64,000 nt of DNA from a virus. The position numbers and the translations under genes were made by a program. Positions 9,592 through 21,765 of the stretch are shown here, piece after piece. Below the pieces are notes generated by a model that saw only the letters and a list, made by a program, of their open reading frames with translations, made no database searches and was not told the origin of the DNA. Location: positions 64,001 through 128,000 of IMG/VR virus record IMGVR_UViG_3300046003_007336. One strand, 5' to 3'. Position 1 is the stretch's first letter. Each line of letters begins with the position of its first letter.

Positions 9592-10064
9592 TGATCTGGC
9601 TCTGTCAGCGGTTTAGGCACCAGACTGGCTGGGAGGGTGCCGACGAATGGGAGTCGCCGAGAAGACGCGCCACAAGACTTAACTGCAAGACCTTTGTGTT
9701 CGAGTTTTCTACCGGAGTCGCGCACCTGTTCCGCCGCTATCGCCAGCCTCTGCGTTTCCCCCTGTCAGGCTTTCCGTTCAGCCCGGCAGACTGGCAGGCC
9801 ACGATCTCTCTGCGGACCCATCTGAAACGCTCGGTCGATACGACCGACGACCATTTGCCCATCTTCCCCATTGGTGAAAACGACGCCCTCGACTGGCTGA
9901 TCAAGAACCTCAAAGGGAAGGTGAAGTTCACCGCTGTCCTCGACCGAAATGACGTAGCTGGTCTCGTCAACGATGCCGCGTATGCCGTCCTGGCATTCAC
10001 CGACACCCGCGATGAAGCCGCCTTCCAACTTTTTTTCGATGGCGGCGAAGTTTTTATTGACTAA
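9588..10064 (+). CDS. hypothetical protein of dispersed motif family
   Basis: Ends LAFTDTRDEAAFQLFFD. Confidence 0.7.
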   Translation: MMIWLCQRFRHQTGWEGADEWESPRRRATRLNCKTFVFEFSTGVAHLFRRYRQPLRFPLSGFPFSPADWQATISLRTHLKRSVDTTDDHLPIFPIGENDALDWLIKNLKGKVKFTAVLDRNDVAGLVNDAAYAVLAFTDTRDEAAFQLFFDGGEVFID

Positions 10065-10977: not shown

Positions 10978-11392
10978 TCGGCCCCGATGTGCTGTTTAGA
11001 GCAAAGCATATCCCCGACTGACTGCACCAGATGCGGCTGAAATGCCAAATCGTCTACCCAGTATACAGGCGTATGCTGGGGGTCTTGAGCGCAAGGTCTG
11101 AACGCTTCGGCGTTCCGGTGGGGGAAGGGGGCTCTGTTGGTGGCGCAGATGCGCCTAGGCTGTGGGTCCACGTCAACTGAACGGCCCCATTAGATTTCGG
11201 TGCCAGGGGTGGAAGGCCTTCCTGAACCTGTGGCTGGAGTCTCGAAATGCAGTCGAGGCGGGTAGAAAGCGAAACCGGACTGGGACTGACCCTAGCACCG
11301 GGCCGCGTTGACAAGCACCGCCCCGCAAGCGCGGGTAAGTCGTGTGCGCTTCCTACAGACGAAGGGGCGGGGGAAACCCTGCCCCTTTTTTT
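10978..11392 (+). ncRNA. structured ncRNA candidate (about 400 nt), or 3' extension of the preceding RNA
   Basis: Non-coding, multiple hairpins and long-range complements, ends in a strong terminator. Confidence 0.55.
11362..11392 (+). terminator. intrinsic terminator
   Basis: AAGGGGCGGGG-GAAA-CCCTGCCCCTT plus T run. Confidence 0.85.
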
Positions 11393-11441: not shown

Positions 11442-12107
11442 ATGAACCGTCGTACTTTCTTCGCCAGCATTCTCGGCGCCTCAGTTGCGGGCACGCTCGG
11501 CAGTCTCGCAGTTCCCGCATGGGCGCGCGCCGACGAGAGCCTGAACATCTATGTTCGCCTGATCGACCTCCAGAAGGCGATGCTGGCCAACCACGAAACC
11601 TGGAAGAGCGGCCCGGCGTTCGCCCACGTGCCCGAACTCGACGACCCCTTGGATACGCGCCCCGATGTCGAAAAGCGTCGCCGCCACCTCGTCGAACAGC
11701 GAATCGCTGACCGCCACGCGGCCCGCAAGAACTACGATCTGACCCCGGCTGACGCCGTCCTCGCGCACCTGAACGCCCATTTCGCCCCCGACGCCAGCGA
11801 CGTCAGCGAGGCCCTCGTGCGCCAAGCCCGCGCCGAGGCCAACGCGGTTGGCGGCGTGAAAATGTCCAGAACGGATTTCCGTCGCGAGGTCGCCATTGAG
11901 CAGGCTCGGCGAGAAGTCCGGGCCGTGTTCAACCGAGAAATCGAGATCGACACCATGTCGGAGGCCAGCATGCGCCGCGTGCTGAAATCGACGGTCGCCG
12001 TCGCGGTCGTCAAGGGCATGCTGTCGGTGCACAAGATGCCCCTCGACCCCAAGAAGATGGGCGCCTTCAACGAGTTCGCGACGAAGTTCAGGCACATCAT
12101 CCTTTAA
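11442..12107 (+). CDS. predicted Tat-exported protein
   Basis: MNRRTFF twin-arginine motif, hydrophobic core, AWA-RA cleavage-like site; TTGACA at 11394; AGGAG SD. Confidence 0.75.
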   Translation: MNRRTFFASILGASVAGTLGSLAVPAWARADESLNIYVRLIDLQKAMLANHETWKSGPAFAHVPELDDPLDTRPDVEKRRRHLVEQRIADRHAARKNYDLTPADAVLAHLNAHFAPDASDVSEALVRQARAEANAVGGVKMSRTDFRREVAIEQARREVRAVFNREIEIDTMSEASMRRVLKSTVAVAVVKGMLSVHKMPLDPKKMGAFNEFATKFRHIIL

Positions 12108-12144
12108 CTTGACAGTTTCCGGCCAAGGTGATTAAATAACTGCG

Positions 12145-12540
12145 TGTTGGTGACCAAATCAACCGCTTAGGCAGGACCGGGGTGCGAATCCCCGCGCCTC
12201 CACCAAAAACACATAGCCCGCTGAGATACGCGGGGAGCCGACTGTCATGTAAGCCGGGTTGGGGTTTCTAGAGCCCTGGCTATCAACGGTAGATCGGGGA
12301 CAGTCACAAGGCGGCTAGAGTTCCTTAGCGGGGGCAACAGTCTAGGCTCGCTACGACCGATATGGTCTGTGTGTTTTTGATGGGGGCGAATAGCTATCGA
12401 CTGATAGGCGTAGAGGCGAGAGACACCGGTAAGAAACGACCGAAAATCAGTTCAAATTTCTACCTGCCAACGACAACGTTGACATGGGTTCCTACGCCCT
12501 CGCGGCGTAAGGAACTCGGGGCCCACTGGGGGCCTAGCAA
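12145..12540 (+). ncRNA. ssrA: two-piece circularly permuted tmRNA; tag (A)ANDNVDMGSYALAA
   Basis: T arm and CGCCTCCACCA end at 12205; GGGGGCG 5' strand at 12382 giving G3:U70; tag frame 12466-12510; TAAATA at 12133. Confidence 0.93.
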
Positions 12541-12541
12541 C

Positions 12542-12570
12542 AGAAGGGGAGACTTCGGTCTCCCCACCTT
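12542..12570 (+). terminator. terminator after tmRNA
   Basis: GGGGAGAC-TTCG-GTCTCCCC followed by T-rich run. Confidence 0.75.
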
Positions 12571-12635
12571 TGTTTCGGTTGACCGTTTCGAAATCTCCGA
12601 CTAAACCGGTCTACGAAATAATCCGAGAAAAGCCC

Positions 12636-18245: not shown

Positions 18246-18848
18246 TTGGAGTTCTGGTTCGTGTTCAATAAATCTTCGCCGATGTTCCGAGGTGCCTTCA
18301 CGACCGTCCTGGTCGCGTTGATCATCTTCTCGGCAGCCTACTTCGCCTCGGTGGAGTTCGCCCAGACCAAGCTGTCTCTGTTCAAATGGTATGAACGCCC
18401 CTATGTGACCAACGCCGAGGGTGTGCAGACGACGCAGTTCCGCGCCGGAGACGCGTTCGTGGTCAACTATTTCGTCGAGCGCGAACCGCTGAAGTGCTGG
18501 GCTGTCTTCACCAACGTTCTCACCGGCCCGGTCTCCTACCAGCTTCCTGCGACTCGCAGCCAAGTCATCACCAAGACGCGCATCCGTGTGCCGCTGAAGA
18601 TGTATGAGGAACTTCCGGCCCAGCTTCCTGCTGGACAATATCGTCTTTCACAAATCGTTTATCCGACGTGCGGGAACGTCCACATGCTACCGTTCAAGCT
18701 CGAAACAGGCATCGTCCTCGACGTGCTGAAGAAGGATGCTCCGAAACCCGTCGTGGTCACCATCCAGCGCGAGCGCGATCTCTACGAGCCCGACTTCGTG
18801 GTCGCGCCTGATCAGTCTGGCGACATCACGGTCCCGCCGTCGCTCTGA
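18246..18848 (+). CDS. late membrane-anchored protein
   Basis: Single N-terminal TM helix; TAAATA at 18227. Confidence 0.7.
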   Translation: MEFWFVFNKSSPMFRGAFTTVLVALIIFSAAYFASVEFAQTKLSLFKWYERPYVTNAEGVQTTQFRAGDAFVVNYFVEREPLKCWAVFTNVLTGPVSYQLPATRSQVITKTRIRVPLKMYEELPAQLPAGQYRLSQIVYPTCGNVHMLPFKLETGIVLDVLKKDAPKPVVVTIQRERDLYEPDFVVAPDQSGDITVPPSL

Positions 18849-19129
18849 TCTCGGGTCCAGTGCTGAAGTGCAAGGTCTTCCAGGAAGACCAGCGCAGCGT
18901 CACGAGACGTAAAAGATTTCACGATTTTGACGGGGTGACGAAGGCACATGTGGACGGTCTCGCCCCATAGGCGGATTACGCCAAAGCCCTCATAGCGACC
19001 GTTCCCCAAGGAACGAGTCCATCGACGCATCGTGCGTCGGTTCGGATTATAGGTGTGTTGGTCCTCGCAACCGAGCAACTCAGCACACCGCAGGTAGAAC
19101 CCTTCTACCCCAGCTTCATTCATTTTCAT
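18812..19129 (-). CDS. hypothetical late protein
   Basis: TAAATA on minus strand at 19136-19141. Confidence 0.7.
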   Translation of the reverse strand: MKMNEAGVEGFYLRCAELLGCEDQHTYNPNRRTMRRWTRSLGNGRYEGFGVIRLWGETVHMCLRHPVKIVKSFTSRDAALVFLEDLALQHWTRDQSDGGTVMSPD

Positions 19130-19167
19130 CGCGAGTATTTATGGCACCCTACTCGCGGATTGTCAAG

Positions 19168-19326
19168 TTAAGACCTGGATGGGCGTTTTCTTCTCCGCAA
19201 CGAAGAAAGCCGCTCGGACTTCTCCGAACGGCCTTTGCGGGTGTAGAGCTTCTTGCTCGGGATGACCTGTTGTTTCAGGTGTGGTGATCGCAACGCTTGT
19301 GCAATCGGGTCTCGTTTCTTCTTCAC
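19168..19326 (-). CDS. ArfA-like alternative ribosome-rescue factor candidate (52 aa), absent from ORF track
   Basis: GTG start, AAGGA SD, TAAATA at 19356-19361; MKKKRDPIAQALRSPHLKQQVIPSKKLYTRKGR resembles the ArfA core. Confidence 0.7.
   Translation of the reverse strand: MKKKRDPIAQALRSPHLKQQVIPSKKLYTRKGRSEKSERLSSLRRRKRPSRS
19201..19236 (-). terminator. terminator-like hairpin inside the ArfA-like ORF
   Basis: Minus strand GCCGTTCGGA-GAAG-TCCGAGCGGC followed by TTTCTT, upstream of the stop codon. Confidence 0.7.
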
Positions 19327-19392
19327 TGTTCTGTTCCTTTACGGGGTGGAATGAATATTTACTTACCCTGATCAGTATGTCAGGATTCCGGT

Positions 19393-19750: not shown

Positions 19751-21034
19751 ATGGACCCGGACTCGCTATGTTGGGTTCATATGAGCAACCTCGCAGAACT
19801 GGTCAAAGCCCGAGACGTAGACGCCATTCGGTCCTACATGGCGGAGCACAATCTGAAGCTCGACGGGCTCCAGATCGTCCCCGCCGATGCTGCAACCAAG
19901 AAGAGCCTGAAGGCTCAGGAGGACTTCTGGAACCAGCGTCAGCAGGCCAGGAAGATTCTACTCAACTCCCTCTACGGCGCGCTCCTCAATGAAGGCCTGC
20001 GCTTCTATGACGAACGCCTCGGCCAGTCCGTAACCCTGACCGGTCGATCTATCGTTCGGCACATGAACGCCAAGTCCAACGAAGTCATCACCGGAGAGTA
20101 TGACTACATGGGCCGCGCTATCGTCTACGCGGATACCGACTCCTGCTATTTCTCCGCCTACGAAATCCTGAAAGAAGACCCCGCCTACGCGGACTTCGAA
20201 TGGACGCGGGAGAACATCATCTCCCTCTACGACAACATCTCCGACGTCGTGAACGAATCCTTCCCCGAGTTCATGCAACGGTCGTTCAACACCACGCTTG
20301 AGCGCGGCGCCATCATTGCGGCCGGTCGCGAACTCGTGGCTTCAAGCGGTCTCTTCATCAAGAAGAAGAAATACGCCGTGCTCATGTATGACAAGGACGG
20401 CACCCGGCTGGACAAGGGCAATAGCCCCGGCAAGCTGAAGGCCATGGGTCTGGACCTCAAGCGGGCCGACACCCCGAAGTACATGCAGAAATTCCTCGAA
20501 GGCCTCCTGATGGATGTCCTCCAGGATGGCTCGAAGGCGGTCGCGTTCGATCAGATCAGAGAGTTCCGCGTCGGCTTCAAAGCACGCCCCTCGTGGGAGA
20601 AGGGCGCCCCGAAGGCCGTGAAGGGCCTGTCCGTCTATGGGGACAAGCTCAGCAAGTCGCACAAGGTCGGGGTGATGTCCAAGGAGGGCAAGTCCAAGGT
20701 CAACATGCCCGGCCACGTTCGGGCCTCGCTGAACTGGAACACCCTCTGCGAACTCAACGACGACCGCTACACGCCTCGCATCACGGACGGGACCCGTATC
20801 GTCGTCTGCCCCTTGAAGTCCAACGCGCTCCGCATGGATTCCATCTCCTACCCGATTGACGTTGACGCCAACCATCTCCCCCGCTGGTTCAAAGAACTCC
20901 CGTTCGATGAAGCCGCGATGGAAGACAAGATTATTGATTTCAAGCTCAAGAACCTTCTAGGTGTATTGGATTGGAACCTGCAAGACACCAAAGACATACC
21001 GGGTGAAGAGTTCTTCACCTTTGAGGAATACTAA
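19751..21034 (+). CDS. family B DNA polymerase, C-terminal subunit of a split gene (alternative start 19781)
   Basis: KILLNSLYG (motif B), YADTDS (motif C), KKKYA, GLD.KR.DTP; no exonuclease or motif A. Confidence 0.92.
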   Translation: MDPDSLCWVHMSNLAELVKARDVDAIRSYMAEHNLKLDGLQIVPADAATKKSLKAQEDFWNQRQQARKILLNSLYGALLNEGLRFYDERLGQSVTLTGRSIVRHMNAKSNEVITGEYDYMGRAIVYADTDSCYFSAYEILKEDPAYADFEWTRENIISLYDNISDVVNESFPEFMQRSFNTTLERGAIIAAGRELVASSGLFIKKKKYAVLMYDKDGTRLDKGNSPGKLKAMGLDLKRADTPKYMQKFLEGLLMDVLQDGSKAVAFDQIREFRVGFKARPSWEKGAPKAVKGLSVYGDKLSKSHKVGVMSKEGKSKVNMPGHVRASLNWNTLCELNDDRYTPRITDGTRIVVCPLKSNALRMDSISYPIDVDANHLPRWFKELPFDEAAMEDKIIDFKLKNLLGVLDWNLQDTKDIPGEEFFTFEEY

Positions 21035-21765
21035 TGCGCAATACTCTAACTGATGTTATTCGTCAGGCCGGGTCACTCTTTGAGGTGGTCAAGGTCACTG
21101 GCACCGAGAACTCGACTGTGTTTGAAGCCGCAGACGAGAACAAGACCCTGTTCTTCAAATCCACGGTGGCTGTCGCCATTCCTGAGTTCGAAGGTGAATT
21201 CGGTCTGACCAACCTGGGTCTCCTCTTGGGTCTCCTCAACTTCCCGTCCTACAACACCGACAAGGCCACCTTCGAGGTCCAGCGGCGCAAGCTCAAGGAT
21301 GTCGAGTTCGTCGAGGCGTTCATCTTCCGTGATGCCAAGAACAAGGGGACGGAGTTCCGCACCATGAACTCCGAACTCGTCAAGGGTCAGGCCAAGATCG
21401 CCAACATCCCATGGGACGTCACCTTCGAGCCCAACTCGGGCAACCTCGAAGAGTTCGCCAAGCTGTCCAGTCTCCTGTCCGGCGTGGACAAGAACTTCGG
21501 CGTCCGCACCGTCGAGGGCAATCTCGAATTCTCGGTCGGCGGCTCCAATTCCGCGACCCACCGGGGCAACATGATCTTCCAAGAGAATGTCTCGGGCGAG
21601 ATCAAGGGCGAGGTTCAATTCAACACACAGCAGTTCATCGCTATCATGAAGCTGGCGGGCAAGAACCCAACCCGGCTTTCCATCACCGGAAAGGGCGTCC
21701 TCGGCGTCCAGGTAAACACCCAACATGGCATCTATGACTACTACCTCCGCGCCAACCGGGCCTGA
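21034..21765 (+). CDS. putative sliding clamp (gp45-like processivity factor)
   Basis: 243 aa, coupled to polB, beta-rich two-repeat pattern; clamp loader present in window. Confidence 0.6.
   Translation: MRNTLTDVIRQAGSLFEVVKVTGTENSTVFEAADENKTLFFKSTVAVAIPEFEGEFGLTNLGLLLGLLNFPSYNTDKATFEVQRRKLKDVEFVEAFIFRDAKNKGTEFRTMNSELVKGQAKIANIPWDVTFEPNSGNLEEFAKLSSLLSGVDKNFGVRTVEGNLEFSVGGSNSATHRGNMIFQENVSGEIKGEVQFNTQQFIAIMKLAGKNPTRLSITGKGVLGVQVNTQHGIYDYYLRANRA

Follow-up and report, generated by a model that had tools for sequence, protein, structure and literature searches.

An ArfA-like peptide gene with a predicted stop-less message in a tmRNA-carrying phage

The stretch of viral DNA analyzed here (the window: 64,000 nt, bases 64001-128000 of a 198.5-kb IMG/VR record that CheckV rates as ~44% complete) contains a short minus-strand ORF that appears to encode a divergent, phage-borne member of the ArfA superfamily, a small basic peptide without a GGQ motif of its own. 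In the mechanism that we propose, the S-K-K-x-Y-x-R-K-G tail of the peptide would, by analogy with ArfA, occupy the vacant mRNA channel of a ribosome that has run to the 3' end of a broken message and stalled, and the N-terminal part would recruit a class-I release factor of the host (RF2 in the ArfA and BrfA precedents), freeing the nascent peptide. The peptide's own transcript would end at a hairpin and U-rich tract that lie within the reading frame, leaving ribosomes stalled on a stop-less end. When trans-translation by host or phage tmRNA has spare capacity, the resulting 39-42-residue product would be tagged and degraded; when tmRNA is saturated, the product would escape and act. Expression would probably be timed by a sigma-70-type promoter, together with the tmRNA. 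We put the probability of this whole mechanism, that is, an ArfA-type peptide, a stop-less message and gating by tmRNA, at roughly 0.7; the RNA 3' end, the tagging, the ribosome binding, the release-factor partner and the timing are the steps that we infer. For ArfA homology together with the stop-less design our confidence is somewhat higher.

The features of the locus are collected in Table 1. The ORF starts with a GTG codon (19326-19324), and its conserved core consists of an N-terminal N-P-x-A..L..P.F segment followed by the basic S-K-K-x-Y-x-R-K-G tail. Many spurious frames of similar length overlap this region of 58% GC DNA, and length alone is uninformative. A family HMM was built from 145 of the family's clustered proteins, with the window sequence left out. 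When applied to all 4,390 six-frame ORFs of the 198.5-kb record, this HMM matched exactly one, the ORF in question. Because a model free of the window sequence picks it alone in the record, and because relatives occur in phages and in IMG/VR, the ORF is by sequence a real gene and no chance frame. Its N-terminus and Shine-Dalgarno sequence agree with those of the relatives. The 52-codon frame with its ribosome-binding site had been pointed out in a preliminary description of this DNA, and both are confirmed here.

Table 1. Features of the ArfA-like gene, its surroundings and the phage tmRNA (positions in the window)
Feature	Position	Strand	Details
Permuted alpha-type tmRNA	12105..12601	+	ARAGORN and Rfam; tag ANDNVDMGSYALAA
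Next gene's separate promoter	19136..19166	-	TTGACA 19166-19161, ATAAATA 19142-19136
ArfA-like (DUF7230-type) peptide, formal ORF including stop	19168..19326	-	52 codons; family HMM E 4.6e-16; PHROG 20887 E 4.7e-4
Tail of formal ORF, non-conserved	19168..19198	-	TAA stop 19170-19168
U-rich tract UUUCUUCGUU, predicted transcript 3' end	19199..19208	-	3' end inferred from sequence
In-frame hairpin, 10-bp stem and GAAG loop	19209..19232	-	19232-19223 paired with 19218-19209
Conserved core, codons 1-33	19228..19326	-	aligns with E. coli ArfA residues 12-44
Shine-Dalgarno AAAGGA	19335..19340	-	8 nt 5' of GTG start
Sigma-70-like promoter candidate	19354..19383	-	CTGACA 19383-19378, N16, TAAATA 19361-19356

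Simple similarity searches with the locus were unproductive: blastn with this region found nothing in the phage collection, and a word-index protein search with the 52-residue query returned no candidates. An AlphaFold2 model of the window protein had a mean pLDDT of 76.5, rising to 90-94 over the first 20 residues, with a helix at residues 7-12. The only entry listed by a Foldseek search of the PDB with this model was ArfA (5mdw_6); its E of 7.4 is not significant, and we do not count it as evidence. The window protein has no GGQ motif; thus, any rescue activity would need a release factor as partner.

Other searches place the peptide in a large family. A tblastn search with the first 31 residues found relatives in 84 phage records, including T4-like phages of Acinetobacter, Pootjesviridae of Agrobacterium and Rhizobium, Caulobacter phage Cr30 and Agrobacterium phage Atu_ph07, and searches of IMG/VR yielded 7 and then 80 related loci. 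With a profile made from the window protein and 38 IMG/VR members, at least 1,110 clusters were recovered at E <= 1e-3 among 1.84 billion representatives. The cluster members are all small and have in common the motif N-P-x-A-K-x-L-R-x-P-x-F-x-x-x-V-V-K-S-K-K-x-Y-x-R-K. Most of the clusters belong to Pfam DUF7230 (PF23876) or are unassigned; among 146 family members collected by profile, 83 match DUF7230 and 12 match ArfA. The window protein itself lies below the reporting threshold for DUF7230 and matches a single PHROG, 20887, of unknown function, while the homologue from phage Ac42 (Ac42p003) matches DUF7230 with E 1e-13. DUF7230 and PHROGs 20887, 2701, 6310 and 18092 (function unknown) form the immediate sequence family, and they carry no functional annotation and no link to ArfA; our literature search found no paper that mentions DUF7230.

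The family is not confined to phages. In genome contigs, a search for related loci with the window protein alone found nothing, but a bacterial family member led to one metagenome-assembled genome, around which the class-wide search was centered. This profile search of 301 alphaproteobacterial species genomes found the family in 28 (~9%); several of these copies have terminators within the ORF, some have the K-G-K-G-S motif, and either tail type is found among the alphaproteobacterial copies. (Among the numbered family loci, L101-L124 are from alphaproteobacterial genomes and L097 and L100 are from the metagenome-assembled genome CAJQQZ010000105.1; some copies lie among housekeeping genes.) For comparison, arfA was found in 0 of 2,376 Alphaproteobacteria in a survey of 15,259 genomes (PMC11633108, Table 1), and a review gives its range as part of the beta- and gammaproteobacteria only, a functional analogue being present in the Bacillus subtilis group (PMC8012679).

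How the family relates to ArfA depends on whether one sequence or the whole family is compared. The window protein alone matched no Pfam or NCBIfam model; it missed the gathering score of the ArfA model PF03889, with no match at E <= 10, and six-frame searches of the record with PF03889 and PF23876 returned nothing. Against the PDB, phmmer found no ArfA chain for it, just a chance match to a GRAM domain (E 1.9), and single-sequence hhalign against ArfA gave a probability of 12.6%. A direct pairwise alignment with E. coli ArfA showed 36% identity over 33 residues, with an E of 0.003 that applies to this single comparison. When the 146-member family alignment was used instead, hhalign against 31 ArfA sequences returned a probability of 95.7% and E 8.6e-9 over 45 columns, the ArfA side being a narrow alignment of close enterobacterial sequences from a homologue search with E. 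coli ArfA. The aligned span, residues 8-55 of ArfA, is interrupted by a 3-residue gap opposite the G-K-G of ArfA. PDB searches with family profiles agree with this result: a 10-member profile retrieved ArfA chains only (six on top, E 1.1e-3), and for the 146-member profile the top six hits were ArfA chains (E 3.5e-5), with nothing else significant.

In solved ArfA complexes, the basic C-terminal segment K-G-K-G-S-Y-x-R-K-x-K acts as the probe in the mRNA channel. The corresponding window motif, S-K-K-L-Y-T-R-K-G-R, keeps the K-K, the Y and the R-K-G and lacks the G-K-G insertion of K-G-K-G-S, and residue A18 of E. coli ArfA aligns with a variable position of the family. The alignment also spans conserved positions that are not basic (N, P, F/L, V and Y), within the N-terminal half of ArfA that contacts RF2. 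Furthermore, the copy in Caulobacter phage Cr30 has K-G-K-G-S-F-T-R-K-G-K at its end and, with 27.3 bits, scores above the Pfam ArfA threshold of 25.5 bits. This Cr30 ORF (L003:1456-1602; KF301602.1, ~11144-11290, minus strand) is unannotated and has 48 codons; its motif is followed at once by an ordinary stop, and ~50 nt of the ORF are shared with the 3' end of the annotated gene upstream.

On these profiles, the family is a remote relative of ArfA, homologous at the family level, and the link is one drawn by family profiles of a short, basic and partly low-complexity peptide. The resemblance to the ArfA core that the preliminary description had remarked upon, with a profile check against ArfA and BrfA in mind, is thus borne out for ArfA by hhalign and the PDB profile searches, but the PDB profile searches brought up no BrfA chain, and the window protein on its own gave no match to PF03889. 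The same properties lend themselves to another explanation, in which a real small basic protein of the DUF7230 type binds the ribosome or RNA for some other purpose (translation modulation, hibernation or packaging) and resembles ArfA just as one basic RNA-binding tail resembles another. Such a protein could well pass no ArfA model, as is the case here, it would fit a domain family that has neither an assigned function nor a literature, and the similarity is indeed short and rich in Lys and Arg, with the G-K-G loop missing. We regard this explanation as unlikely, since the non-basic conserved positions align over the RF2-contacting half as well, a continuum of intermediates reaches up to the Pfam ArfA threshold, and the family has kept a stop-less gene layout that, among the factors reviewed, is known only for arfA and brfA (PMC8012679).

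The layout can be seen in the window itself. The hairpin opens at the Gly codon directly after the Y-T-R-K codons, with the stop ~10 codons further on, and its stem can be extended to 13 bp through AAG/UUU pairs (19206-19235). The 66-nt fold has a predicted energy of -29.2 kcal/mol (z = -3.9; 1 of 200 shuffles was equally good); the best hairpin scores -24.3 kcal/mol, compared to -7.0 for a control window upstream within the ORF. The U-rich tract that follows is interrupted. The site was absent from the output of a simple terminator scanner, which extends stems greedily and apparently consumed the first three U in this way. Both the sequence and the fold bear out the earlier observation of a 10-bp hairpin and U-rich tract inside the frame, after Y-T-R-K-G and before the stop. 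Most likely, judging from these elements, the transcript ends within the frame at 19232-19199. If transcription terminates in the U-rich tract, the peptide would be ~39-42 residues long and extend 8-11 residues past K31. Just 1 nt separates the formal TAA stop from the -35 TTGACA in the promoter of the next gene; given this position and the lack of conservation past the hairpin, the ‘tail’ of the ORF would be intergenic DNA.

The layout recurs among relatives. For 54 distinct phage loci of the family, we searched the 60 nt surrounding the end of the R-K codons and kept the best-scoring hairpin. Twenty loci, among them the window and Atu_ph07, have one of -17 to -24 kcal/mol that starts between -6 and +2 nt from this point. 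In 19 of the 20, the first stop comes after both the hairpin and the T-run, at a distance of 45-201 nt from the R-K codons; in the remaining one (L089), it is 30 nt past them, within the T-run. The other 34 loci mostly have the opposite arrangement, with a stop 6-30 nt after R-K and no such hairpin (29 loci); five have long tails with weak or no hairpins. The distribution is thus bimodal, and the members with an ordinary stop end 2-10 residues after the R-K Lys, approximately where the truncated product would be expected to end. Applied to E. coli arfA as a positive control, the script recovered the known hairpin at codons 51-67, located 25 nt past R-K.

A GGGGCGG/CCGCCCC stem is common to many of the 20 hairpin loci, which are to that extent not independent; clearly different stems are found in the window, L010, L078, L083/L085, Atu_ph07, L094 and L096. 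Three further lineages, L094, L096 and L097, were retrieved by exact protein look-up. The relative L094 is syntenic, lying beside a DNA_pol_B gene, and has the same layout with a 15-bp stem of different sequence; it encodes G-R-P-E-K-G-G-P where the window encodes G-R-S-E-K-S-E-R. The layout also occurs in a metagenome contig (L096), among the housekeeping genes of an alphaproteobacterial metagenome-assembled genome (L097) and in the bacterial members L103, L106, L107, L114 and L124. Past the hairpin the sequence is not conserved, even between the window and L094, and the open frames run on by up to 201 nt in phage relatives and up to 480 nt in a bacterial copy, into unrelated DNA. As far as sequences can tell, independent lineages have a hairpin ahead of the stop at one and the same codon, with stems of different sequence, and the non-stop message architecture claimed in the preliminary description stands in silico.

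In the closest sequenced relative, phage Atu_ph07, an unannotated family member (L079:1501-1656; MF403008.1, ~368590-368742, minus strand) has a 12-bp in-frame hairpin directly after Y-D-R-K-K and no T-run; by analogy, its processing may be nearer to the nuclease cut of E. coli arfA than to termination. Some hairpin-bearing relatives from IMG/VR (L034, L038, L083 and L085) are predicted to have another strong hairpin (-17 to -18 kcal/mol) in the 60 nt of coding sequence that precede the terminator; it might form an alternative, anti-terminator-like structure.

A hairpin in a coding sequence does not have to end the message, and the full 52-residue protein could be made in the normal way, with the hairpin serving as a partial attenuator or insulator between the ArfA-like gene and the next one, or as a stability element, and tmRNA gating playing no part. 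The imperfect U-rich tract, the negative scanner result and the hairpin without a T-run in the Atu_ph07 copy would all suit this explanation, and a closely coupled ribosome can suppress hairpin formation. It fits poorly with a next gene that has a promoter of its own directly past the formal stop, with post-hairpin tails that diverge even in the syntenic relative, with frames that continue into unrelated DNA for 201 or 480 nt, and with hairpin-free members that stop 2-10 codons after R-K, the length expected of a truncated product; we give it a slim chance. That the ORF is a chance frame in GC-rich DNA, as the many spurious ORFs of this length might suggest, with the hairpin terminating some other transcript (e.g., on the plus strand), is as good as refuted as far as sequence analysis goes, by the unique family HMM match, by the agreement of N-terminus and Shine-Dalgarno sequence with relatives, and by the plus strand, where the hairpin is followed by CTTTGCGG with no T-run and no gene was found to end nearby.

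Both proposed components of the rescue system, the ArfA-like peptide and a tmRNA, are encoded in the window. As the preliminary description had it, the phage carries its own tmRNA, which was detected by ARAGORN and Rfam (RF04321, 95.3 bits; RF01849, 71.6 bits), along with eleven tRNAs from the same two sources. The tmRNA promoter consists of TTGACA (12109-12114), an 18-nt spacer and TAAATA (12133-12138), all on the plus strand; it has the TAAATA previously described, and it is of the same type as that of the ArfA-like gene, (T/C)TGACA-N16-18-TAAATA. The co-occurrence is not general: in an RF01849 search, alpha-type tmRNA was absent from 10 other phage records with the gene, some of which are incomplete, making the window phage the only one of these 11 records with both. 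The suggested two-tier circuit with a phage tmRNA therefore retains its tmRNA and its common promoter type but does not extend to the other records, where gating would normally rely on the tmRNA of the host. No SmpB gene and no release-factor gene (RF-1 domain) was found in the record, which is ~44% complete. A DNA-polymerase fragment in the record shares 55% identity with its counterpart in Agrobacterium phage Atu_ph07 (490 kb) and 52% with the one in Sinorhizobium phage Phosso; by this kinship the source is a jumbo phage, probably with an alphaproteobacterial host.

The promoter of the ArfA-like gene had been described as a late one on account of its TAAATA. The TAAATA is present, but ‘late’ does not hold up: the motif enriched in this DNA is ATAAATA (10 in the window vs 1.0 expected; 25 in the record, mostly 8-35 nt before an ATG), which is probably the phage's T4-type late promoter core, whereas the ArfA-like gene has GTAAATA, which is not enriched (3 vs 1.2 expected), with CTGACA 16 nt upstream. 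The ATAAATA sites in the window are at 1583, 2337, 3382, 14206, 16414, 19136, 36563, 49769, 54489 and 62545. A promoter scanner also lists the site of the ArfA-like gene as sigma-70-like, reading it somewhat differently, as CTGACA-N18-AATATT. Judged by their sequences, the promoters of the ArfA-like gene and the tmRNA look sigma-70-like and not demonstrably late. The combination TGAC-N16-20-TAAATA occurs six times in the record, as opposed to 0.58 in shuffles: before tRNA-Met, the tmRNA, the ArfA-like gene and the next ORF, and at two sites elsewhere in the record. (Those in the window are at 10058 and 12110 on the plus strand and at 19165 and 19382 on the minus strand.) This second promoter class suggests a co-expressed set of translation-related genes.

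Among known systems, the phage design as predicted is that of arfA and brfA, closest to brfA in mechanism and to ArfA in sequence. ArfA (YhdL, PF03889) of E. coli and other gamma- and betaproteobacteria (PDB 5MDV, 5MGP, 5U4I, 5H5U and 7OJ0) is likewise a small basic peptide without GGQ, its residues 12-44 align with the phage core, and from the hairpin that precedes the stop in both genes, a stop-less mRNA is predicted. For arfA, the message is shortened at its stem either through premature termination or through cleavage by RNase III (PMC8012679). The product end predicted for the window is ~8-11 residues after R-K, compared to ~11-13 in E. coli ArfA. In contrast to the long RNase III stem of E. 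coli arfA, however, the window hairpin stands directly after R-K-G and resembles an intrinsic terminator; moreover, the tail of the window protein is not hydrophobic, the G-K-G insertion is missing and the Pfam ArfA threshold is not reached. A further difference is the carrier of the gene, a jumbo phage; its closest known relatives have hosts among the Alphaproteobacteria, a class without reported arfA (PMC11633108).

BrfA (YqkK) of Bacillus subtilis is a likeness in regulatory design only. The brfA mRNA has a rho-independent terminator before its stop codon, trans-translation gates its product, and BrfA requires RF2 (PMC8012679); a terminator inside the ORF would give a stop-less mRNA in the phage as well. 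The hosts differ, and the PDB profile searches returned no BrfA chain at E <= 10. Two further ArfA-type peptides are known from phages of Alphaproteobacteria: gp30 of pelagiphage HTVC027P (PMC12753301) and g10 of Citromicrobium phage RXM (PMC8953757) are labeled ArfA in papers that name the Pfam domain only, with no discussion of a stop-less architecture or a link to tmRNA. More broadly, our literature search found no paper on stop-less architecture in phage copies of ArfA. The Cr30 copy aligns with the window protein, the difference being its ordinary stop.

In sum, a family of at least 1,110 clusters, common in phages, is tied to ArfA both by profiles and by the same unusual stop-less gene design. 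A broader proposal, which we offer tentatively and with less than even confidence, is that DUF7230-type peptides are a large unrecognized branch of the ArfA-type, release-factor-dependent factors, and that the phage factor and tmRNA form a co-expressed, self-contained two-tier module. On this proposal, tmRNA-gated back-up rescue would extend to phages and to the Alphaproteobacteria, which are thought to rely on ArfB alone, and the phage module would keep ribosomes free during destruction of host mRNA or in the face of defenses that cleave mRNA or tRNA. If these peptides are active, it would be routine for phages to supply a ribosome-rescue back-up of their own, the known taxonomic distribution of rescue pathways would have to be redrawn, and the in-ORF terminator could serve as a convenient computational signature for finding further rescue factors. 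Since factor and phage tmRNA are found in one genome, with the same promoter type, the gating idea is directly testable within a single phage.

Some neighboring features of the locus may also be mentioned. The next gene on the minus strand is an ORF at 18812-19129 (105 aa, no family match), with ATAAATA 6 nt before its ATG; this ATAAATA lies in the loop of an 8-bp inverted repeat, CGCGAGTA (19157-19150) and TACTCGCG (19137-19130). The gene could have a dual early/late promoter with a regulatory hairpin, or a near-leaderless mRNA. On the other side, the match to family-B DNA polymerase is limited to a 427-aa ORF (19751-21034, plus strand) that covers the C-terminal part. This looks like a split polymerase, comparable to that of L094, which has a solitary DNA_pol_B ORF of 439 aa. 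Adjoining the polymerase ORF of the window is a 243-aa ORF (21034-21765), a putative sliding clamp.
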